Below are positions 12,324-21,943 of a stretch of DNA of 32,000 nt, one piece after another (position 1 is the first letter of the stretch; every line of letters starts with the position of its first letter). The notes beneath the pieces are model-generated. The model worked only from the letters and a program-made list of their open reading frames with translations, did not search any database and was not told the DNA's origin. The stretch is from NCBI RefSeq assembly GCF_001644705.1, contig NZ_CP015137.1, positions 1,110,001 through 1,142,000 of the forward strand. Direction: 5' to 3'. The stretch is from Dickeya solani IPO 2222 (lineage in GTDB: Bacteria > Pseudomonadota > Gammaproteobacteria > Enterobacterales > Enterobacteriaceae). The position numbers and the translations under genes are program-made.

Positions 12324-13028
12324 ATGGGCAGAATCGCGCCCAGGAGAAAGCAATCCACCTGGAATCACCTGACGCTATGGCAGTCCTGCCAGAACTGGCT
12401 GGCCCAATGGCGTCAACGCAAGGACATTCCCGGTGAACCGGAAGAAAGCGCAGATGAAGCGGAGACGGTTATCCCGGCCCCCGCTCCACGCCGCAGGCAT
12501 CGCAGACAGCTATCCTGGCTGCGGACGCTTTGGCATCTGCCGGATGATTTCAGCTGGATGGAACCGCTGCCCTATTTTCACCGTCGTTGTATTCTGATTT
12601 TGCTGTGTTTGCTGTTGCTGGTGCTGCTGTGGCCGTCCCCACCAGCCCCTGCGCCTTCTCGTCAGATAGACGTGCCGCTCAGCTCGCAGACCGCGCCGAT
12701 ACAGGCGCAACTGGTGGACCCCGCCGCCACCGCCAGCCAGACGCCGCGCCCGGCGACGTCTGGCGCCAACTGGCAATCCTATCAGATCGCGTCCGGCCAG
12801 ACGCTGGCCCAGCTATTCCGCGACAACAGCCTTCCCGTCAACGATGTCTTCGCCATGGCGCAGGTGGAAGGACAAAACAAGCCGCTCAGCAATCTGCGGG
12901 CCGGGCAAAAAGTCCGGCTACAGCTCAATACGCAAGGTATGGTGAGCCAGCTTGAGATCGACACCCCGGACGGTCAACAGGTACAGTTCGTTCGCCAGCA
13001 GGATGGTTCTTTCATCCGCATTCGCTGA
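12324..13028 (+). CDS. ytfB: YtfB, OapA-family (LysM-like/OapA domain) cell-division-associated membrane protein
   Basis: The RBS AGAGAGG precedes the ATG. WHLPDDFSWMEPLPYFHRR is followed by a TM segment. The C-terminal part WQSYQIASGQTLAQLFRDNSLPVNDVFAMAQVEGQNKPLSNL...DGSFIRIR is colinear with E. coli YtfB. The gene is divergent from fklB, as in E. coli. Confidence 0.88.
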   Translation: MGRIAPRRKQSTWNHLTLWQSCQNWLAQWRQRKDIPGEPEESADEAETVIPAPAPRRRHRRQLSWLRTLWHLPDDFSWMEPLPYFHRRCILILLCLLLLVLLWPSPPAPAPSRQIDVPLSSQTAPIQAQLVDPAATASQTPRPATSGANWQSYQIASGQTLAQLFRDNSLPVNDVFAMAQVEGQNKPLSNLRAGQKVRLQLNTQGMVSQLEIDTPDGQQVQFVRQQDGSFIRIR

Positions 13029-13386
13029 GCGCTGACTGTTCTATCAGAAAATCACGCAACACCATCGCATGATTCCGCTCCTTATCCCGGCTGCCATACA
13101 GCAGGGTTATCGGCTGCGACTGACGCAGTAACGCCACCAGCGGCTGCCACGCGGTATGTTGACGCAGCTCCGCACGGTACATCCCGACAAAAGTGTCCCA
13201 TTGCACCGGATTAGCATGAAACCAGCGCCGTAATTCATGGCCTGGCGCGACGTCTTTCAGCCAAACGACGCCGGGCAGACGGCTTTTGGCTATGCCGCGC
13301 GGCCACAGTCGGTCGACCAGAAATACCGAATGTTCAGGAAGAGGCGGTATGTCATAGACGCGCACCAGCCGGATCAATTCTGTCAT
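13012..13386 (-). CDS. DUF488 (YeaO-like) protein
   Basis: The start at 13386 gives MTELIRLVRVYD...FLVDRLWPRGIAKS...ITLLYGSRDKERNHAMVLRDFL, which matches the YeaO/DUF488 pattern (VDRLWPRGI, LLY..K....NHA.VL). Its 3' end overlaps the ytfB 3' end by 17 bp. Confidence 0.8.
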   Translation of the reverse strand: MTELIRLVRVYDIPPLPEHSVFLVDRLWPRGIAKSRLPGVVWLKDVAPGHELRRWFHANPVQWDTFVGMYRAELRQHTAWQPLVALLRQSQPITLLYGSRDKERNHAMVLRDFLIEQSALSECG

Positions 13387-13525
13387 GTCATGTCCCCCGG
13401 TTATCGTGCTCCATGATAGCCCCCGTTTCACAGACTGTCTCGCCTATACCGACCTCCCCCGGATCGTCTTAACGATCCATTTCGCGCAAAAAACCCTTGA
13501 CAGGATCTCCGTATTTGATAAAAAC

Positions 13526-13550
13526 TGCAAACGTTCCCGCAAACGTTTTA
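13526..13550 (+). promoter_or_regulatory. Operator-like tandem GCAAACGTT motif (LacI/PurR-type half-sites) upstream of the DHDPS-like gene
   Basis: The site reads TGCAAACGTTcccGCAAACGTTTTA. Each copy has a central CG and matches the left half of PurR/LacI-family boxes (GCAAACGTTTGC type). TTGACA sits 23 nt upstream. An identical 25-mer occurs inverted at 21041-21065. Confidence 0.55.
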
Positions 13551-13665
13551 CAAGAAAAATACCCTACAGGAAAAAGAGGACGTTATGAAAGAAATCACTA
13601 TCGATTTACGTGGTCTGAACCCGGCGCCGATCACCCCCTTCACCCGCGATGGCGCGGTGGATTAC
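13526..13665 (+). repeat. Left arm of a 140-bp inverted repeat (operator, RBS and first 27 codons of the DHDPS-like gene)
   Basis: It is the reverse complement of 20926-21065, with only a handful of mismatches in my by-eye alignment (for example ccggcgccg versus ccacctacg). Confidence 0.85.
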
Positions 13666-14520
13666 ACCGCCTGTAAAAAACTGGGCGCCTGGCTGGCCGG
13701 CATCGACGGCGTCAAGAGCCTGACCGTACTGGGTCACGCCGGGGAAGGCACCTTCCTGTCCCAGGATGAACAGATGAAAGTGATTGAAGCCTTCGCAGAA
13801 TCCGTGAACGGCGCCATTCCCATCATCGCCGGCATCACGCTGGAAGGCACCGCGGTGGCGGTGGAGGAAGCCAAACGGGCCATCAAGGCCGGTGCATCCG
13901 CCGGTCTGTTGTATCCGTCGCACGGCTGGCTGCGTTTCGGCTACCAGAAAGGCGCGCCGCAGGACAAATACCGTCAGGTGTACGAAGAGAGCGGGCTGCC
14001 GCTGATTCTGTTCCAGTACCCGGATGCCACCAAATGCACCTACAGCCTGGAGACGCTGCTGGATATCGCCGCGCAGCCCGGCGTGTTCGCGATGAAGAAC
14101 GGCGTGCGCAACATGCGCCGCTGGGACACGGAAATTCCGGTCATCCGCCGGGAGCGTCCGGAGCTGCAAATCCTGAGCTGTCATGACGAATACCTGCTGT
14201 CGACGGTCTTTGACGTGGACGGTCTTCTGGTGGGATACGGCAATATCGCGCCGGAGCTGCTGGTGGAGATGATTAAGGCGGGGAAAGCGAAGGATTACGC
14301 GAAGGCGCGGGCCATCCACGACCGTCTGCTGCCGGTGACGAAGAGCGTCTACCACCGGGGTTCGCATATGGAAGGGACGGTGGCGCTGAAGCACGCACTG
14401 GTGGAAAGGGGGATTCTGGAGCACGCCACGGTGCGTTCGCCGTTGATGCCGCTGGAGGCGGGAGCGGAAGAGGAAATCAAGGCGGCTATCCGGGCGGCTG
14501 AACTGCCTCGCGTTGGCTGA
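13585..14520 (+). CDS. Dihydrodipicolinate synthase (DHDPS/NAL) family class I aldolase or dehydratase; substrate unknown
   Basis: The 311-aa product has GHAGEGTFLS (the GTTGE-like motif), LFQYP (the catalytic Tyr region) and FAMKNG (a candidate Schiff-base Lys). The RBS AAGAGGA is 6 nt upstream of the ATG. It is not the housekeeping dapA by context. Confidence 0.8.
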   Translation: MKEITIDLRGLNPAPITPFTRDGAVDYTACKKLGAWLAGIDGVKSLTVLGHAGEGTFLSQDEQMKVIEAFAESVNGAIPIIAGITLEGTAVAVEEAKRAIKAGASAGLLYPSHGWLRFGYQKGAPQDKYRQVYEESGLPLILFQYPDATKCTYSLETLLDIAAQPGVFAMKNGVRNMRRWDTEIPVIRRERPELQILSCHDEYLLSTVFDVDGLLVGYGNIAPELLVEMIKAGKAKDYAKARAIHDRLLPVTKSVYHRGSHMEGTVALKHALVERGILEHATVRSPLMPLEAGAEEEIKAAIRAAELPRVG

Positions 14521-14536
14521 TTAGTCCCCCTTGTTC

Positions 14537-14572
14537 TGCCACGGTGCCGAGAATCACACAGGCGCCGTGGCA
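14537..14572 (+). other. 12-bp stem-loop just 3' of the DHDPS-like gene (no U-tract)
   Basis: TGCCACGGTGCC (14537-14548) pairs with GGCGCCGTGGCA (14561-14572) with one G-U pair and a 12-nt loop. It could be an mRNA 3' stabiliser or a weak terminator. Confidence 0.4.
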
Positions 14573-14948
14573 TATGCCAGGCTGTGACCACACCGCCGTT
14601 ACCACGCACTATGTTCTGGTTCACACATCATCAGACGCACAGATCTCATCGACGGCCGCTATCATTATCCAGCGGATTAACTCAGGCTGCTCCCGTCAAT
14701 AACCCGTATTGCGGGCACAGACCGAAATGCCAAAAACATAGCTAATTCATCTGAGCCACTCCATAATAATCGCATGCAAAACAGGCGATAAAATATCCGC
14801 TCCCCAGACAGCCCGGTGTTGCCGACATGACGGTAACAGCAATCTTGCCGCACGGCCCATGCCGTTGGCGGCGTCTGAACCTAAGACGGTTTAACGCAAC
14901 TGCGGCGTCTGGCTGGGAATGCCCACATTGATTAACCCTAAGGATGAC

Positions 14949-15995
14949 ATGGATTCAAACGCATTTTCGCAGCACGGCGCAAACCGGAAACTAAGCAATA
15001 AGCCCGTCACTCTGCAAGATGTGGCGACGGTGGCAGGCGTCAGTGTTTCTACCGTGTCCCGGGTACTGGACGAACGCCTGCCGCCGTCGCGCAGCAAAAC
15101 CGCTGAGCGGGTTCGGCAAGTCGCACAGGAACTGGGATATCGCCGGGATATTATGGCCTCCAGCTTGCGCCGCGGCGGCACCGGCACCATCGGCGTACTG
15201 GTGCCGCGCCTGAGCGACATGGTGATGGCGTTGCTGTATGAAGCCATTTTCCGGGCAGCGGAAAAACAGGGTTATTTCACGATCGTCGCCACCTGCGGCG
15301 ATGATCCCGCGCAGGAAAAAGCGGCGGTGGAATCGCTGCTCGACAGACGGGTTGACGGACTGATTCTGGCGACCAGCCGACTCGATGACCGTCTGCCTGC
15401 CGAGTTGCGTCAGCAACAGATTCCCCACTCGCTGGTACTGCGTACCGACGGTATCAGCCGTTCTGCCATCGGCAACGATGAGCAAGGCGGTTATCTGGCC
15501 ACCCGGCATCTGATCGATTTAGGCCATCGGGATATCGGCCTGATTGCCGGACCCAACTTCACATCGGGCGCGCGCGATCGTCGTTTGGGCTTCCAGCGCG
15601 CCATGCAGGAAGCGGGCTTATCGATACGGCCCGAGTGGATTAAAGAATCCGGCTTCGGCATTGAATCCGGGGAAGCGAAAGGATTGGAACTGCTCACGCC
15701 CGCGCATCGGCCCAGCGCCATTTTCGCTATTAACGACGATCTGGCGATAGGCGTCATGGCTGCCGCGCATCGTGTCGGCCTGACGCTCGGTCAGGATCTG
15801 TCACTGGTGGGATACAACGATATTCCGCTGGTGGCGCGTCTGCCGGTGCCGTTGTCTTCGGTACACATCCCGCTGGATCACATCGCTTCGCTGGCGGTAG
15901 AACTGCTGCTTTCCGCTTCAGACGGCAATGAGCCAATCCGCCGGGTTATCCCCAGCCTGATCCCCAGAAGCTCCAGCGCACCGTTCAACCGCTAA
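14949..15995 (+). CDS. LacI-family transcriptional regulator
   Basis: It has an N-terminal HTH (VTLQDVATVAGVSVSTVSRVLD) and a periplasmic-binding-protein-like sugar-binding core (GVLVPRLSD..., VDGLILA, FAINDDLAIGV). I prefer ATG 14949 (AAGGA upstream) over ATG 14919 (no RBS), but the start is not certain. Confidence 0.85.
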   Translation: MDSNAFSQHGANRKLSNKPVTLQDVATVAGVSVSTVSRVLDERLPPSRSKTAERVRQVAQELGYRRDIMASSLRRGGTGTIGVLVPRLSDMVMALLYEAIFRAAEKQGYFTIVATCGDDPAQEKAAVESLLDRRVDGLILATSRLDDRLPAELRQQQIPHSLVLRTDGISRSAIGNDEQGGYLATRHLIDLGHRDIGLIAGPNFTSGARDRRLGFQRAMQEAGLSIRPEWIKESGFGIESGEAKGLELLTPAHRPSAIFAINDDLAIGVMAAAHRVGLTLGQDLSLVGYNDIPLVARLPVPLSSVHIPLDHIASLAVELLLSASDGNEPIRRVIPSLIPRSSSAPFNR

Positions 15996-16076: not shown

Positions 16077-17966
16077 TTACGACAATAATCGCCGTGCCGC
16101 TATCCTTGTGGTCTGGTGATAGCCGTCTTCTTCCCGATCCTCTTCACCTTCAGGCAAATGAAAGACCGCAATCAGTTCCGCCAAGCGAGCCACCTGTTCT
16201 TCCAGCGCGTTTGCTGCGGATGACGACTCATGCACCATCGACGCATTTTGCTGGATGGTCGAATCCATCTCCGTCACCGCACTACCGATTTGTGAAATAC
16301 CGCGGCTCTGTTCATCTGAAGCGGTAGAAATTTCACTCATCAGCGTGTTGACCGAACCGACCGCCGCCACGATCTCCTCCATCGTCGAACCTGCACGAGC
16401 AACCAGCGCCGTACCGGCATCCACACGGGAAACCGACTCGGTAATCAACGCTTCAATCTCTTTGGCCGCCTGAGAACTGCGCTGAGCCAGACTACGAACC
16501 TCACTGGCCACAACAGCGAACCCGCGGCCCTGCTCGCCGGCCCGCGCCGCTTCCACAGCGGCATTCAGCGCCAGAATATTGGTCTGAAAAGCGATGCTGT
16601 TAATCACCGAGGTAATATCGGAAATCTTTTTAGAGCTGCCGGAAATCTCGGACATGGTGCTGACGACTTTCCTGATGATATCGCCCCCTTTGTTGGCAAT
16701 ATCGGACGCCTGACCGGTGATTTGACTCGCGTGGCGAGCGTTATCCGCGTTGTTTTTCACCGTTGAGGTTAACTGTTCCATGCTGGCCGCCGTTTCCACA
16801 ATCGCGCTAGACTGCTGCTCCGTTCTTGACGACAGATCGCTGTTGCCTGCGGCGATGGCGGTTGATGCGTGGGCTACCTGGTTGACGCTTTTGCGAATAT
16901 CCCTCACCAGTGTGCGTAGCCGTAATGTCATCCCCATCATCGCGGCCGTCAGCATTCCCAGTTCATCGTGGCGTTCCACCGTCACCGACGTCGACAGATC
17001 GCCGTCGGCAATGGTTTCCGCCAGTTTCAGGTTGGACATGATAGAACGGGTGATCAGCCGCGTTACCGACCAGGCAATCAGCAAACCAAACAGTACCGCC
17101 AGCACGCCCAGCACCACCACCTGCAGCACCGCGCTATTGATCACCGAACTGTTTTTCGCATCGATACTGCCGACAATATTGGCGATATCGGCAGTAATCT
17201 TGTCGCCGGTAATCCGAAATTTCGCATCGGAGTCTTTAAGACGGGTTAAATTATCAACATATTGCATCGCCGCCTGGCTGTAACTGGCCATATATTTATC
17301 TACATCGGCCAGCTTACTTTTTCGCTCGCTATCGACAGCGGCAGAAAAATCAGCATAGATCTTGCGGACGTCATCATAGTTTGACTGCAAGGTTTTCAGC
17401 GAATCCGTGCTGCCCAACCGCTGCAAACTTTGCATACTATTCGCCAGTTTGAAAAATGCCAGCAGGGTATTATCGCGTTTTGCCAGCAATTCGGTTTCAT
17501 CCGGTTTTAATGGCAGACTTCCCGTAAAACGAGCCAGCATATCCCCCTTATCAAGGGCATCGATGGCTTTACTCGCTTCCTTCACTTTATTCAATGCCAT
17601 TTTCAAATTATCCAGATCTTGCCAATACTGTTTCATATCCTGATCCAGACTATTGAAGTAGTCGCTATATTCATTTCCCCATATCAGCGTTTTGGCCTTA
17701 TTAATTTGATCTACGATTTGATTATTATATTTAACTAGATTAGTCAGGTTTGTTTCATCGAATGAGAAGAAATACTTTATTCTCGCAATTTTTGACTGAT
17801 CAAGATAATGATTCATGTCATTCATTATTATTGTTTTCACATAGAGGTCACGAATAATAAAGAAACGAACCGCACCAAACCCTGAGGCCAAAATTACCAG
17901 CATAAGCACAATGGCAAATCCGCCATACAGTTTATGTGACACTTTCATTTTATTTATAAATTTCAT
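16077..17966 (-). CDS. Methyl-accepting chemotaxis protein with a ~245-aa, apparently all-helical periplasmic sensor (HBM-like?)
   Basis: TM1 is [19 protein letters not shown] and TM2 is [22 protein letters not shown]. These are followed by a HAMP domain and the conserved signalling hairpin [42 protein letters not shown] prefer the start at ATG 17966 ([16 protein letters not shown]). The ORF-track start at 18008 is non-ATG and over-extended. Confidence 0.9.
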
Positions 17967-18020
17967 TTTTATCCCAACCCTCACCTTCAGCAACAGGAAA
18001 AAAAGCAAATCTTAAAGACA

Positions 18021-18301: not shown

Positions 18302-19150
18302 TCATGATAGAATAACTTTTTGTTCTACCACATTGTGTAAACAGCCAATTTTCTCTATCTCCACCTCCACAATATCACCGTCATACAGGAATAGCGGCGG
18401 ATTGCGTTTTTTACCTACCCCTCCGGGGGAACCAGTAATAATAACATCGCCGGGTGAAAGCGCACTGAAGGTACTGATATACGCAATCAATGCGGGGATA
18501 GAGTGAATCATACCGGAAGTATTATCATTTTGAACGGTTTGACCATTTAATCGGGTTTGAATACGCAAATTCTGTGGTTGTGGAATTTCATCTCGGGTTA
18601 CCAGCCAGGGGCCAAATGCACCGGTTCGGCACCAGTTTTTCCCGGCGGTAAACCAGCTATGCTGCCAGTCACGCACCGAGCCATCCATATAACAACTGTA
18701 TCCGGCGACATGTTCAAGAGCCTGCGCCACATCAATTTCCCTGCCGGCCTTGCCAATAATAACCGCCAGTTCGCCTTCATAGTCAAACTCGTTGGATTGC
18801 GCCGGCTTGAGCAAGCCGCAATTATGCCCGACCTGAGAGTCTGGGAAACGAATAAATAATGTAGGCGCGGGGTTGGCCTCTCCGAATTCCACTCTTTTTT
18901 CGGCATAGTTCATCCCGACACAGAAAATTTTCCCGGGGTTGTTGATGACGGGTAAAAAGGTGACGTCCTTTTCCTGATAGTCCGCTTTCTCATGCAAAAA
19001 ACGCTGCGCGTCATGCACCCCATTTTCTTTGATCAGCGCCCGTAAATCGGCGTATCGCATTCCCAATCTGGCGCCCAGATCAATAATGCCCGCGTCGACT
19101 TTTAATCCGTAGCTTTCCCTTGAACCAACAATAAAACTCGCTAATTTCAT
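18302..19150 (-). CDS. Fumarylacetoacetate hydrolase (FAH) family protein (acylpyruvase / 2-keto-4-enoate hydratase / diketo-acid hydrolase type)
   Basis: The 282-aa product has the typical FAH-domain layout: KIFCVGMNYAEK, EFDYEGELAVIIGK, MDGSVRDWQ and LSPGDVIITGSPGGVG. The RBS GAGGTG precedes the ATG at 19150. It is visibly more AT-rich than its neighbours. Confidence 0.85.
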   Translation of the reverse strand: MKLASFIVGSRESYGLKVDAGIIDLGARLGMRYADLRALIKENGVHDAQRFLHEKADYQEKDVTFLPVINNPGKIFCVGMNYAEKRVEFGEANPAPTLFIRFPDSQVGHNCGLLKPAQSNEFDYEGELAVIIGKAGREIDVAQALEHVAGYSCYMDGSVRDWQHSWFTAGKNWCRTGAFGPWLVTRDEIPQPQNLRIQTRLNGQTVQNDNTSGMIHSIPALIAYISTFSALSPGDVIITGSPGGVGKKRNPPLFLYDGDIVEVEIEKIGCLHNVVEQKVILS

Positions 19151-19262: not shown

Positions 19263-20675
19263 CTACGGTGATAGCTCCTCAAGTACCTTCCCTTTCGTTT
19301 CAATGGCGTACAGCACCGTCACCACGCCCCCGATCAACGCAATCAGCGCAAAGGCGACAAACACGTACCGAACGCCAAAATCACCGACGATGACACCCAC
19401 CAGCAACGGACCAACGGCAGAGCCCGCCCGCAGCCAGGCGCTGCCAAGCCCAGTACCAACGGCTCGCAGCCGCGTCGGATAGAGTTCGGAGGAATAGAGG
19501 TACAGAGAGAACGTGATCGTCTGCAATATGGCATATGCCACCGTAGCGCAAACCAGCACCTGCATCGGCGTGGTCGCCCCGAGTACGGTCAATGTCACCA
19601 ACGGTATGATCGCCAGCAAAAATGCCGTCGCATACCAGGGCTTACGTCCGACCTTATCGATAGATAAGGCGCAGATAACCGATGCCAGAACACCGAATGC
19701 CGAGGTCGTCCAGCCATAGGCCAGCGCCGTTTCGAGCGGTAATCCAAACACTTTTCTGTACAGCGTCGGCAGCCAGGTTACCAGACCGTTGTTTATCATG
19801 TAGCCGCAAACCCATAGCGCCCAGATGGTGAACGTGCGTTTGCGGTAAATACCGGAAAACAGTTCGCGCCAACCTTGCCGCAACACAGATGGTCCTCCTG
19901 TCGGACGAATCACCGGCTCCGGTAGCGTGCCGCCACGACGAATCACCTCGCTTTCCAGCCTGGTCACTACCTTATCCGCTTCGGCAAAGCGCCCTTTTGA
20001 CGCCAGCCAGCGGGGTGATTCCGGCATCAGCCAGCGCAATGGCACGGTAATAATCGATGGAATCAATCCCACGATAAACATCGCCTTCCAGCCATAGATC
20101 GGCACCAGAAAATACCCGGCGATCCCGGCAAACATCATGCCTATCGGGAAAATGACTTCATACAGCAGGAAGAAGCGCCCGCGTTTTTTCGCACCGACGA
20201 ATTCGTTGATATAGGAGCTCGCCACGGGAACTTCGGCACCGATACCAACCCCCTGCAGAAAACGGAATACCATCATTGACGCGCCGCTCCAGGCAAAGAG
20301 GCAAGCGGCATCCATAAACACAAAAAGAAGAATCGTGATTTTCAGCACCCCAAGCCGACCGATTTTTTCGGCCAGCGAACCAAAAAAGACCGCACCGACC
20401 AATTGTCCAACATAACTGGCGGCGATAATCATACCGATATCGGCCGCACTCAATCCCCACTCAGCTGCGAGTTGTGGCATGGCAAACGCAATCGCCAGCA
20501 CCGTATAAGCGTCAAAAAAGGTGGAAAGCCCCACGACCACGCGAATAGTCAGCAACTGACGGGTAATGGGCATTCGTTCCAGACGAGCAACCAACTCGGC
20601 ATTGCTTGTTGATTCCGAGTGCGTGGTGCTGACGACCTGCTCTATGGCTCCGGCACTAATGTCATGTGTCGACAT
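19263..20675 (-). CDS. MFS transporter, metabolite/aromatic-acid:H+ symporter-like (12 TM)
   Basis: The 470-aa product has MFS signatures: GSLAEKIGRLG (the loop 2-3 motif), PESPRWL and ELYPTRLRAVG. GGAG lies 9 nt upstream of the ATG at 20675. Confidence 0.85.
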   Translation of the reverse strand: MSTHDISAGAIEQVVSTTHSESTSNAELVARLERMPITRQLLTIRVVVGLSTFFDAYTVLAIAFAMPQLAAEWGLSAADIGMIIAASYVGQLVGAVFFGSLAEKIGRLGVLKITILLFVFMDAACLFAWSGASMMVFRFLQGVGIGAEVPVASSYINEFVGAKKRGRFFLLYEVIFPIGMMFAGIAGYFLVPIYGWKAMFIVGLIPSIITVPLRWLMPESPRWLASKGRFAEADKVVTRLESEVIRRGGTLPEPVIRPTGGPSVLRQGWRELFSGIYRKRTFTIWALWVCGYMINNGLVTWLPTLYRKVFGLPLETALAYGWTTSAFGVLASVICALSIDKVGRKPWYATAFLLAIIPLVTLTVLGATTPMQVLVCATVAYAILQTITFSLYLYSSELYPTRLRAVGTGLGSAWLRAGSAVGPLLVGVIVGDFGVRYVFVAFALIALIGGVVTVLYAIETKGKVLEELSP

Positions 20676-20823
20676 AAGTTTGTTCTCCAGAAAGGATTTT
20701 CAGAGGCGCACCATGCCCGTTAAGAGCGGATATCGCATTGATAAGCCGGGAAAACGACAACAATGTCATCTTGACCGCGCTAATCATGCAGCGATGCTCA
20801 GAACACGGCAGCGCCGTGCTTCA

Positions 20824-21006
20824 TCAGCCAACGCGAGGCAGTTCAGCCGCCCGGATAACCGCCTTGATTTCCTCTTCCGCTCCCGCTTCCAGCGGCAGCA
20901 GACGGTCGTGGATGGCCCGTTTGGCGTAATCCACCGCGCCATCGCGGGTGAAGGGGGTGATCGTAGGTGGGTTCAGACCACGTAAATCGATAGTGATTTC
21001 TTTCAT
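20824..21006 (-). pseudogene. In-frame, triply deleted 60-codon relic of the DHDPS-like gene (paralogous to 13585-14520)
   Basis: The translation is MKEITIDLRGLNPPTITPFTRDGAVDY-AKRAIHDRLLP-LEAGAEEEIKAVIRAAELPRVG*. This corresponds to residues 1-27, about 239-250 and 290-311 of the intact copy. The deletion junctions fall at the microhomologies GGATTAC and TGCCG. The ORF-track version (start 21066) is over-extended. Confidence 0.85.
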
Positions 21007-21065
21007 AACGTCCTCTTTTTCCTGTAGGGTATTCTTTTTATAAAACGTTTGCGGGAACGTTTGCA
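20926..21065 (-). repeat. Right arm of the 140-bp inverted repeat
   Basis: It is the reverse complement of 13526-13665. The two antisense shadow ORFs in the track (13606-14424 and 20566-20985) end in almost the same peptide (...HRAIAGEGGDRRRVQTT versus ...HRAIAGEGGDRRWVQTT), which independently shows the duplication. Confidence 0.85.
21041..21065 (-). promoter_or_regulatory. Second copy of the tandem GCAAACGTT operator-like motif, upstream of the relic/MFS/FAH unit
   Basis: The minus strand reads TGCAAACGTTCCCGCAAACGTTTTA, identical to 13526-13550. A TTGACA lies 27 nt further upstream. Confidence 0.55.
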
Positions 21066-21427
21066 TATATTTCTGATAAAGGGCTGGTGGCTGTCAAGAA
21101 GACGATAAAGATTTTGATGGGTTGTGTGATGAGTATCGCCGTCTGACACTTCTCAGAGCAGTTCAAGCAGCTGAATAAAATATATGCAGATTACATCACG
21201 GAAATTTATCGGAAGAATAAACGACGTAGGAAGATGAGTATTAACTTACTAAAAATTAAATAAATTACAAAAAATAATCCAAATACCTTTTTACCTGCAT
21301 TTTATGAATAACAAACCGCCCGCTATGACAAAGTAATCCCTTTTTCTGATTATTTCGCCAGTGATTTGTAAGTCACTATTATCGGTTGCTTTTCGCATGC
21401 GAACAAAATAAGACACGCCAGAAATGC

Positions 21428-21454
21428 AAAACGCTGGCACAAGGCCAGCGTTTT
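21428..21454 (-). terminator. rplI (rpsF operon) rho-independent terminator
   Basis: AAAACGCTGGC pairs with GCCAGCGTTTT around a 5-nt loop. On the minus strand it is followed by TTTTGCATTT, 27 nt after the rplI stop. Confidence 0.85.
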
Positions 21455-21481
21455 ACGTGTTGTGGTCAACCGAAGTAAAAC

Positions 21482-21943
<462 letters not shown>

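Follow-up and report, generated by a model that had tools for sequence, protein, structure and literature searches.

The 32,000 nucleotides (nt) of Dickeya solani IPO 2222 analysed here (contig NZ_CP015137.1, forward strand, positions 1,110,001 to 1,142,000; the window from here on) carry on their minus strand a 60-codon open reading frame (ORF) that stands in front of the genes for an MFS transporter and an FAH-family hydrolase. This ORF is the relic of a DHDPS-family gene of which the window also holds an intact copy. But why would the stump of an enzyme gene persist at the head of an operon? The most probable reading, with a probability of about 0.8, is that a redundant paralogue has been decaying at this position and has been kept as the regulated promoter and translated leader of MFS-FAH and, where present, of the gene for a methyl-accepting chemotaxis protein (MCP). 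A captured regulated promoter and leader had been offered as one alternative in the first-pass annotation of this DNA and is now the best fit, the -35 box, operator, Shine-Dalgarno (SD) sequence and ATG being conserved in every lineage.

The course of events may be pictured as follows. In a Pectobacteriaceae gene cluster the DHDPS-like gene would have existed as two near-identical inverted copies, each with its operator and ribosome-binding site (RBS), one heading MFS-FAH and the other heading a LacI-family regulator gene, and gene conversion would have kept both alike. Given two copies, the MFS-proximal one was presumably dispensable and would have been shortened by deletions, each between two short direct repeats, which removed 99, 432 and 117 nt in the ancestor of D. 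dadantii and D. solani, a further 105 nt in D. solani and, separately, 846 nt in the lineage of Pectobacterium versatile and Symbiopectobacterium. The survivors would be what the downstream genes need, namely the -35 box, a tandem LacI-type operator overlapping the promoter, the 5' untranslated region (5' UTR), the SD and the ATG, and MFS-FAH(-MCP) would be co-regulated with the intact DHDPS-LacI unit via identical operators. The relic peptide itself would do nothing. Its frame would have stayed intact mostly through in-phase repeats in a codon-biased gene, with gene conversion contributing; a mild selection against variants that are polar because out of frame is a possible further factor.

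The relic and its source gene

The relic ORF (20824-21006, minus strand; 60 codons and TGA) translates as MKEITIDLRGLNPPTITPFTRDGAVDYAKRAIHDRLLPLEAGAEEEIKAVIRAAELPRVG*. The first-pass annotation had derived it from the DHDPS-like gene at 13585-14520 (plus strand; 311 amino acids (aa); Pfam DHDPS, 2.9e-41), and both the translation and a local alignment of 13450-14600 (plus strand) with the reverse complement of 20760-21140 agree. Positions 13526-13665 match 21065-20926 (133/140 nt identical), 14308-14329 match 20919-20898 (22/22) and 14447-14521 match 20897-20823 (73/75). The first of these stretches begins 58 nt 5' of the relic ATG and spans the operator, the SD, the ATG and codons 1-27, as expected from the earlier statement that start, frame, stop, RBS and an operator-like repeat had been retained. 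The last ends one base past the TGA; that homology stops at the stop codon, with 148 nt left to the MFS start, had also been read correctly.

Four blocks make up the ORF. Block 1 (20926-21006) corresponds to codons 1-27 of the intact gene (13585-13665) and ends at a D. solani-specific 105-nt junction with GCC microhomology. Block 2 (20911-20925) is the 15-mer GCCAAACGGGCCATC, an exact copy of 13870-13884 (AKRAI, within EEAKRAIK of the intact protein); in the 93- and 97-codon relics of two related loci (L043 and L042, respectively) it extends upstream as TAVAVEEAKRAI. Block 3 (20898-20919) equals 14308-14329 (RAIHDRLL) and shares with block 2 a 9-nt microhomology overlap, CGGGCCATC, at a 432-nt deletion, while block 4 (20824-20897) equals 14447-14520, the final 24 codons and stop, following a 117-nt deletion at TGCCG. 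The residues retained are 1-27, 95-99/242-249 and 288-311 of 311, and the catalytic core of the DHDPS fold (residues 28 to ~288) is lost. No Pfam domain was recorded for the relic-length proteins P0001-P0004, which include the 60-aa product. The latter is found as an identical entry on 44 D. solani contigs, under the NCBI name 'hypothetical protein'. Four substitutions within 7 nt (20962-20968, relic codons 14-16; CCGGCGCCG to CCACCTACG, PAP to PPT) are confined to the D. solani relic, and this cluster would fit one multi-nucleotide event better than separate changes.

A stepwise deletion history

How was a gene of 311 codons reduced to 60? A protein search recovered relics of other sizes, with 58 aa (D. 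solani, six contigs), 93 aa (D. dadantii, L043) and 97 aa (L042, CP094943.1), and all relic sizes in L042, L043 and L044 occupy one syntenic position, between rplI and the MFS gene. The 93/97-codon relics are laid out as residues 1-56 (…GHAGEGT), AVAVEEAKRAI, HDRLLP and LEA…PRVG, and the D. solani relic is the dadantii-type relic minus nt 82-186 of the latter. Alignment of each relic to the intact copy of its own genome gives four events. Three fall in the D. dadantii/D. solani ancestor: J1 (99 nt; 10-nt repeat GGAAGGCACC), J2 (432 nt; repeat CGGGCCATC, 9 nt in D. solani) and J3 (117 nt; 5-nt repeat TGCCG). The fourth, J4 (105 nt; 3-nt repeat GCC), is restricted to D. solani. Each is a multiple of three, and every junction carries a short direct repeat of which one copy is kept, as in microhomology-mediated deletion. 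Smaller differences of 6 or 12 nt among the relics fall in the periodic stretch GAAGCGGGAGCGGAAGAGGAA.

This history revises the three-deletion model of the first-pass annotation. The multiples of three, the short repeats and the 117-nt step at TGCCG stand; the 633-nt deletion at GGATTAC and the additional 3-nt loss are rejected, because the relic holds the exact 15-mer copy of 13870-13884 and the 93/97-codon relics hold intermediate sequence. Nested events of 99, 432, 117 and 105 nt take their place, with the same sum as before (753 nt).

The state before decay

Is a full-length gene found anywhere in the place of the relic? L051, from a metagenomic lineage with 77% identity in the MFS protein, carries all 311 codons of the gene upstream of the MFS gene, and in-frame versions of 97, 93, 58, 29 and 26 codons occupy this place elsewhere, which bears out the earlier claim that the ancestor of the relic headed the MFS-FAH unit. 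Likewise, in about 25 alpha/beta-proteobacterial loci a full DHDPS orthologue immediately precedes the MFS orthologue, both being on one strand. The intact arrangement that the first-pass annotation had thought might be found in relatives therefore exists, in L051 and in these loci. A 4.5-kb contig from the lineage of L051 (L050) runs from a DHDPS 3' end through MFS and FAH to an oppositely oriented LacI and DHDPS 3' end; its ends are inverted copies, identical at 143 of 144 positions, and they part one base past the stop. This layout recurs in Pectobacterium aroidearum (L053), with 94 in-frame codons at each end, 281/285 identical and diverging five bases after the stop. As judged from these contigs, the ancestral Pectobacteriaceae cluster appears to have had two full DHDPS copies in inverted orientation, and the homology boundary at the stop codon would then be ancestral, not a property of the relic.

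Copies within one genome are thus closely alike (98.6-99.3% identical in L053 and L050, ~96% in the window), and each relic is 95-100% identical to the intact copy of its own genome. DHDPS orthologues of different lineages, by comparison, are only ~75-82% identical. Because near-identity within genomes stands against ~20% difference between lineages, gene conversion seems to have kept the copies alike. A concerted-evolution comparison of D. solani with D. dadantii was uninformative, since their intact copies differ by 1-3/135 nt and the species are too close; the case rests on L050, L053 and the between-genus comparison. Short-read contigs of the cluster in L046 (Musicola keenii), L050 and L053 end in or beside the DHDPS repeat. 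The inverted duplicate breaks short-read assemblies in this way and may hide full-length MFS-proximal copies in draft genomes.

Relics in other genera

Shortened copies also occur outside Dickeya. Symbiopectobacterium (L001, L003, L034, L047, L054) has a 29-codon ORF, for example MTNMNIELRGLNPTPFTPFHRNAELPRVG*, and P. versatile (L045) a 26-codon relic. Both derive from one common 846-nt in-frame junction at CGCG[A/C]TG (6/7 match), and the P. versatile relic has lost in addition one 9-nt TPF repeat unit. The frame is broken in L004 (14-nt deletion) and L041 (10-nt duplication), both degraded symbiont loci whose MFS genes are truncated or fragmented too.

What remains in D. oryzae (L002, L049) is the promoter, operator, SD and 4-6 codons, followed by unrelated sequence, through which an ORF of 63-66 codons runs from the DHDPS ATG (shuffle P 0.06-0.08); a 9-nt in-frame indel separates the two genomes. 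The replacement sequence (L002 9692-10000; L049 556-869) is GC-rich, shows no similarity to the window or to the fetched loci, and the FAH gene is also missing there. In Pantoea alvi (L021) operator-like sites precede the MFS and DHDPS genes, and there is no relic.

A putative shared promoter and operator

What has been kept on the relic and intact sides alike? In all genera this is CTTGACA, a lineage-specific spacer of 23-26 nt, a 12-nt-periodic operator, the SD and the ATG. The putative -35 box of the relic/MFS promoter, TTGACA at 21092-21097 (minus strand), was assigned from conservation and lies within CTTGACAG. CTTGACA occurs in every sequence that covers its position (D. solani, dadantii-like loci and D. 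oryzae; the intact side in Symbiopectobacterium; further Symbiopectobacterium/Pectobacterium copies), and the full CTTGACAG in all but one. A consensus promoter and terminator scan of 20500-21600 called neither a TTGACA promoter nor an rplI terminator. The operator-like element (21042-21065, minus strand) begins 26 nt downstream of the -35 box and has two 12-nt units (TGCAAACGTTCC CGCAAACGTTTT), each with a GCAAAC half-site. Split into halves the units read GCAAAC-GTTCCC and GCAAAC-GTTTTA, the left half perfect, the right 4/6, with a central CG. An exact copy precedes the intact gene (13526-13549, plus strand; TTGACA at 13497-13502), and within the window the 24-nt operator TGCAAACGTTCCCGCAAACGTTTT is found only at 13526 and 21042, with a chance expectation of 0 matches. 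The SD of the relic ORF, AGAGGA at 21011-21016 (minus strand), is identical to that of the intact gene. In L051 (~390-445) the operator is a tandem 12-nt array with three copies of ATTGCAAACGTT and a variant, four units against two in D. solani; unit number therefore varies between lineages.

Which protein would act on these sites? The cluster contains a LacI-family regulator gene (14919-15995, plus strand; Pfam LacI and Peripla_BP); among NCBIfam models it comes nearest to RbsR, PurR and CytR, without reaching the cut-off of any of them. When metagenomes were scanned for GCAAACGTTCCCGNNAACGTT, at least 10 contigs showed the motif next to LacI orthologues (57-66% identical) and DHDPS orthologues (70-80% identical), and the motif accompanies the LacI-family regulator in all Pectobacteriaceae loci as well. 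In the two contigs checked for position (L083, L131) it lies between the LacI and DHDPS genes, ~25 nt upstream of the DHDPS start. The LacI-family protein is presumed to be the repressor at both operators, and we infer that one repressor would control both units, the relic region giving MFS-FAH(-MCP) a regulated promoter and a translated leader. The same 21-nt pattern of the operator also occurs near a distant LacI-family gene (~26% identical), with no DHDPS gene nearby, in L059, L067, L073, L079-L082 and ~25 other metagenome loci, many of them from human gut, which suggests that this operator type is shared among LacI paralogues.

On its upstream side the relic promoter is likely isolated from the ribosomal-protein operon by a predicted intrinsic terminator, found by direct reading at 21421-21454 (minus strand; AAAACGCTGGC-CTTGT-GCCAGCGTTTT GCATTT). 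Because this hairpin and T-rich tail follow rplI, read-through from that operon is unlikely.

Why is the frame still open?

The first-pass annotation had argued that in-frame deletions contradict neutral decay, assuming that one deletion in three would keep the frame by chance. Is one third the right expectation? As a phase null, all maximal exact direct-repeat pairs within the intact gene were taken, and the fraction lying a multiple of three apart was computed. It is 0.36 for repeats of 2 nt, 0.42 for 3 nt, 0.47 for 4 nt, 0.53 for 5 nt, 0.62 for 7 nt or more and 0.67 for 8-10 nt. Repeats are in phase because codon bias writes recurring motifs (EGT, RAI, LP, DY) with the same codons, and the junctions J1 (99 nt) and J2 (432 nt) each fall on one of the gene's six longest repeats, in phase in either case. 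With length-matched fractions, four in-frame deletions have P ~0.10-0.18 against a naive 0.012, and five, counting the Pectobacterium/Symbiopectobacterium event, P ~0.04-0.09 against a naive 0.004. With 42-67% of repeats in phase, the argument from the four deletions loses much of its force.

The open frame may then be a by-product, with neutral DNA kept open by in-phase microhomology, 6- and 9-nt slippage and occasional gene conversion, an explanation that falls just short of an even chance. The repeat-phase statistics, the close identity of each relic to its own intact copy and that of the inverted copies in L053 and L050 favour it, and so does the pattern of substitution. The ratio of non-synonymous to synonymous polymorphism (pN/pS) of the relic is ~1, the relics within Symbiopectobacterium giving 0.9-1.6 and the intact genes of those genomes 0.02-0.13, although counts are small. 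Over 135 shared nt, 9 changes are unique to Dickeya relic lineages and 2 to the intact copies, counts again being small, and in Pantoea alvi an operator stands directly upstream of the MFS gene with no relic between them. What does not sit well with a by-product is the contrast in indel sizes between ORF and flanks, described below, and the persistence of an open frame in four differently built leaders, the unrelated sequence of D. oryzae included.

Alternatively, the frame may be actively maintained. Early stops would expose C-rich RNA to Rho, MFS-FAH expression would fall, and the stump would be a selected but sequence-independent leader. This seems possible rather than probable. The 5' half of the relic has a C/G ratio of 1.4-1.6, exceeding every window of the intact gene, and its out-of-frame registers meet stops every 60-200 nt; a polar effect of frameshifts is therefore plausible. 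Moreover, gating of Rho access by translation of an upstream ORF (uORF) is an established mechanism (PMC12360218, PMC7815308). All five large deletions, spread over two lineages, keep the frame, no lineage has lost SD or ATG, and the only frame-broken relics (L004, L041) accompany damaged MFS genes. On the other hand, the proper null is 0.42-0.67 per event, with the P values given above, conversion from the selected intact copy could erase frameshifts, and the lineages are few and non-independent. The clusters of L003 and L034 are decaying, yet their relic frames are intact, and an untranslated spacer of 66-148 nt is tolerated regardless.

Several observations weigh against the main reading, that of a decaying stump kept as promoter and leader. 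In non-degraded genomes the relic ORF indels are all multiples of three (105, 6, 6, 6/12, 9 and 9 nt), whereas those of the adjacent 5' UTR and spacer measure 1, 2, 1, 3, 1 and 1 nt, that is, 1/6 in phase; the Fisher test of ORF against flank gives P = 0.015, as computed before a 1-nt 5' UTR indel was added. This contrast hints at frame constraint beyond mechanism, and it also speaks for active maintenance. However, all relic ORF indels lie in 6- or 9-nt periodic repeats, in phase by construction, the lineages are few, and both repeat-mediated mechanisms and conversion from the intact gene confound the signal. The ORF of 63-66 codons in D. oryzae persists from the same ATG despite its replaced body, with an in-frame indel, and this too counts for active maintenance. 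The MFS-proximal copy is the decaying one in all three lineages, for which the main reading offers no reason, and the relic promoter, with its weak -10 box, escaped the consensus scan. Our literature search found no paper on in-frame bias of repeat-mediated deletions in bacterial pseudogenes, nor on the relic locus, and returned general uORF and Rho papers only.

Could the peptide itself matter? The relic has the architecture of a uORF, with its own SD (AGAGGA), ATG at 21006, stop at 20824 and a 148-nt spacer, its expression being predicted from sequence. Across relatives it measures 26, 29, 58, 60, 93 or 97 codons with differing internal content, and the changes in Dickeya relics are mostly non-synonymous (R9H, V25M, A to V, R to H and the 4-nt PAP to PPT patch). 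With pN/pS ~1 and a length of 26-97 codons, a sequence-specific form of the leader-peptide role suggested in the first-pass annotation is refuted, and a sequence-specific function as leader peptide or small protein is very unlikely. A role of the 60-residue product as a functional small protein, or as a leader peptide that senses a metabolite or stalls ribosomes, has next to no chance of being real: a strong SD with ATG and annotation as a protein in 50 D. solani contigs count for it, and against it stand the variable length and content, the neutral pN/pS, the body replaced in D. oryzae, the loss of the DHDPS catalytic core, and the lack of a Pfam domain in P0001-P0004 and of an Rfam element in the leader.

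The spacer and leader RNA

Between the relic stop and the MFS start lies an untranslated spacer of 148 nt (20676-20823, minus strand) that has no homology to the DNA downstream of the intact gene and differs from dadantii-like loci by 2-nt and 1-nt indels. It is predicted to fold at -59.1 kcal/mol (z = -2.6 against shuffles) into one long imperfect hairpin. Conservation with Musicola, Symbiopectobacterium and D. oryzae is limited to its final ~40 nt, which form the MFS RBS region. A short hairpin reported earlier at 20804-20818 is present as sequence, but it is absorbed into the larger predicted spacer fold. As a terminator this 15-nt hairpin (20818-20804) was rejected, having no U-tract and being lost from the minimum-free-energy fold. 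An Rfam search of 20400-21600 with E up to 1 found no known leader or riboswitch.

The gene cluster and its neighbours

The gene map, drawn from Pfam, shows two convergent units: operator-DHDPS-LacI on the plus strand and operator-relic-MFS-FAH-MCP on the minus strand. With 131 bits against the 206 required by the dapA equivalog model, the intact DHDPS-like protein is not a bona fide DapA; it is taken as a class I aldolase or dehydratase. An antisense ORF of 272 codons within its gene (13606-14424, minus strand) is most likely a by-product of GC-rich codon usage and is treated as such rather than as a gene. The MFS transporter gene (19263-20675, minus strand; 470 aa; Pfam MFS_1/Sugar_tr) has as nearest NCBIfam model the aromatic acid/H+ symporter subfamily, below its cut-off, and is followed by the FAH-family hydrolase gene (18302-19150, minus strand; 282 aa; Pfam FAA_hydrolase, 1.3e-61). 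Last on the minus strand comes the MCP gene (16077-18008; Pfam MCPsignal/HAMP), present in Dickeya and Symbiopectobacterium and absent in P. versatile and P. aroidearum. An MCP embedded in a catabolic cluster may mean that the substrate of the cluster is sensed.

The neighbours are an OapA/YtfB-like gene (12324-13028, plus strand; Pfam) and a DUF488 gene (13012-13431, minus strand; Pfam) on one side and rplI (21482-21931, minus strand; Pfam and E. coli BLAST) on the other. In E. coli genomes only rplI and rpsR find matches, and the cluster is therefore absent there. It sits between rplI and DUF488/ytfB in Dickeya (L042-L044) and between slyD and slyX in Pectobacterium and Symbiopectobacterium (L045, L047). 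The set of relic, MFS, FAH, (MCP), LacI and DHDPS is flanked on both sides by inverted promoter/5' DHDPS copies, and no mobility genes were seen. Given two chromosomal sites in different genera, the cluster looks like an island that moved as a unit. A metagenome contig (L163, 2-5716) carries FAH, DHDPS and LacI on one strand (DHDPS 84%, LacI 75% identical); this DHDPS-LacI orientation is unlike that of Dickeya, and the cluster has therefore been rearranged more than once.

What the relic means

The locus offers a well-resolved case of stepwise gene decay, because living relatives still show the gene at full length, at three intermediate sizes and in two independent end states, and every junction of the relic is assigned to a named short repeat. 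In practice, the annotation of the 60-aa D. solani 'hypothetical protein' should be changed to gene remnant. More generally, arguments of the kind 'in frame, therefore selected' need a repeat null that is aware of codon phase; here it is 42-67%, not 33%.

A broader idea would be that selection against Rho-dependent polarity filters the decay of redundant operon-first genes. Only those deletions and indels after which ribosomes still reach a stop close to the next gene would persist, such pseudogenes shrinking as open, translated 'fossil uORFs'. This we consider rather unlikely. If it were true, the rule could be read off this locus as a natural series (311 to 97/93 to 60/58 codons; 311 to 29 to 26; the unrelated 63-66-codon ORF of D. 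oryzae). If the frame is under selection, the locus would form a simple natural system for the limits that transcription-translation coupling sets on operon pseudogene decay, and the idea could be checked genome-wide.

Comparison with known systems

The putative operator resembles those of LacI-family repressors (PurR/RbsR-like) that control two units, in its GCAAAC half-sites, central CG, overlap with the promoter and in-cluster regulator, in the identical element copies before both units and in the co-occurrence of motif and regulator in other bacteria. It differs in being built of tandem 12-nt repeats (two here, four in L051) and not of one clean palindrome.

Bacterial pseudogenes are reportedly subject to a deletion bias, in the accounts of Mira, Ochman & Moran (2001) and of Kuo & Ochman (2010). 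The relic fits such deletional decay in that a functional source gene is present, the core is lost, the junctions lie on repeats, evolution is neutral and shrinkage stepwise. It departs from it in that start, stop and frame survive at least four deletions, and in its position between a needed promoter and downstream genes, where promoter, operator and SD stay selected. Inverted duplicates can evolve in concert by gene conversion, as tufA and tufB do in Salmonella. The DHDPS copies share with them the within-genome identity of 96-99% against orthologues ~20% different and the sharp boundary common to lineages, but here one partner has been deleted piecemeal, leaving ever shorter conversion tracts. 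As the remnant of a redundant, gene-converted inverted paralogue the relic is a known kind of object, and a fairly ordinary one.

The polarity of nonsense and frameshift mutations through Rho, as opposed to non-polar in-frame deletions, has been reviewed (PMC12360218). The likeness lies in an operon-first ORF whose translation would decide on Rho loading before the downstream genes, and the surviving natural relic alleles resemble the non-polar in-frame deletions that geneticists make deliberately. The difference is that polarity is here a hypothesis and that repeat phase bias accounts for much of the pattern. Regulatory uORFs and leader peptides that gate Rho or attenuators are known from toiL-topAI (PMC12121999) and from E. 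coli 5' UTRs (PMC7815308). The order of promoter, short ORF, untranslated spacer of 66-148 nt and structural genes is alike, translation of the ORF being predicted in the present case. The peptides of toiL-topAI-type uORFs, or their key codons, are conserved and sense signals, whereas the relic is a fossil, neutral and variable in length.

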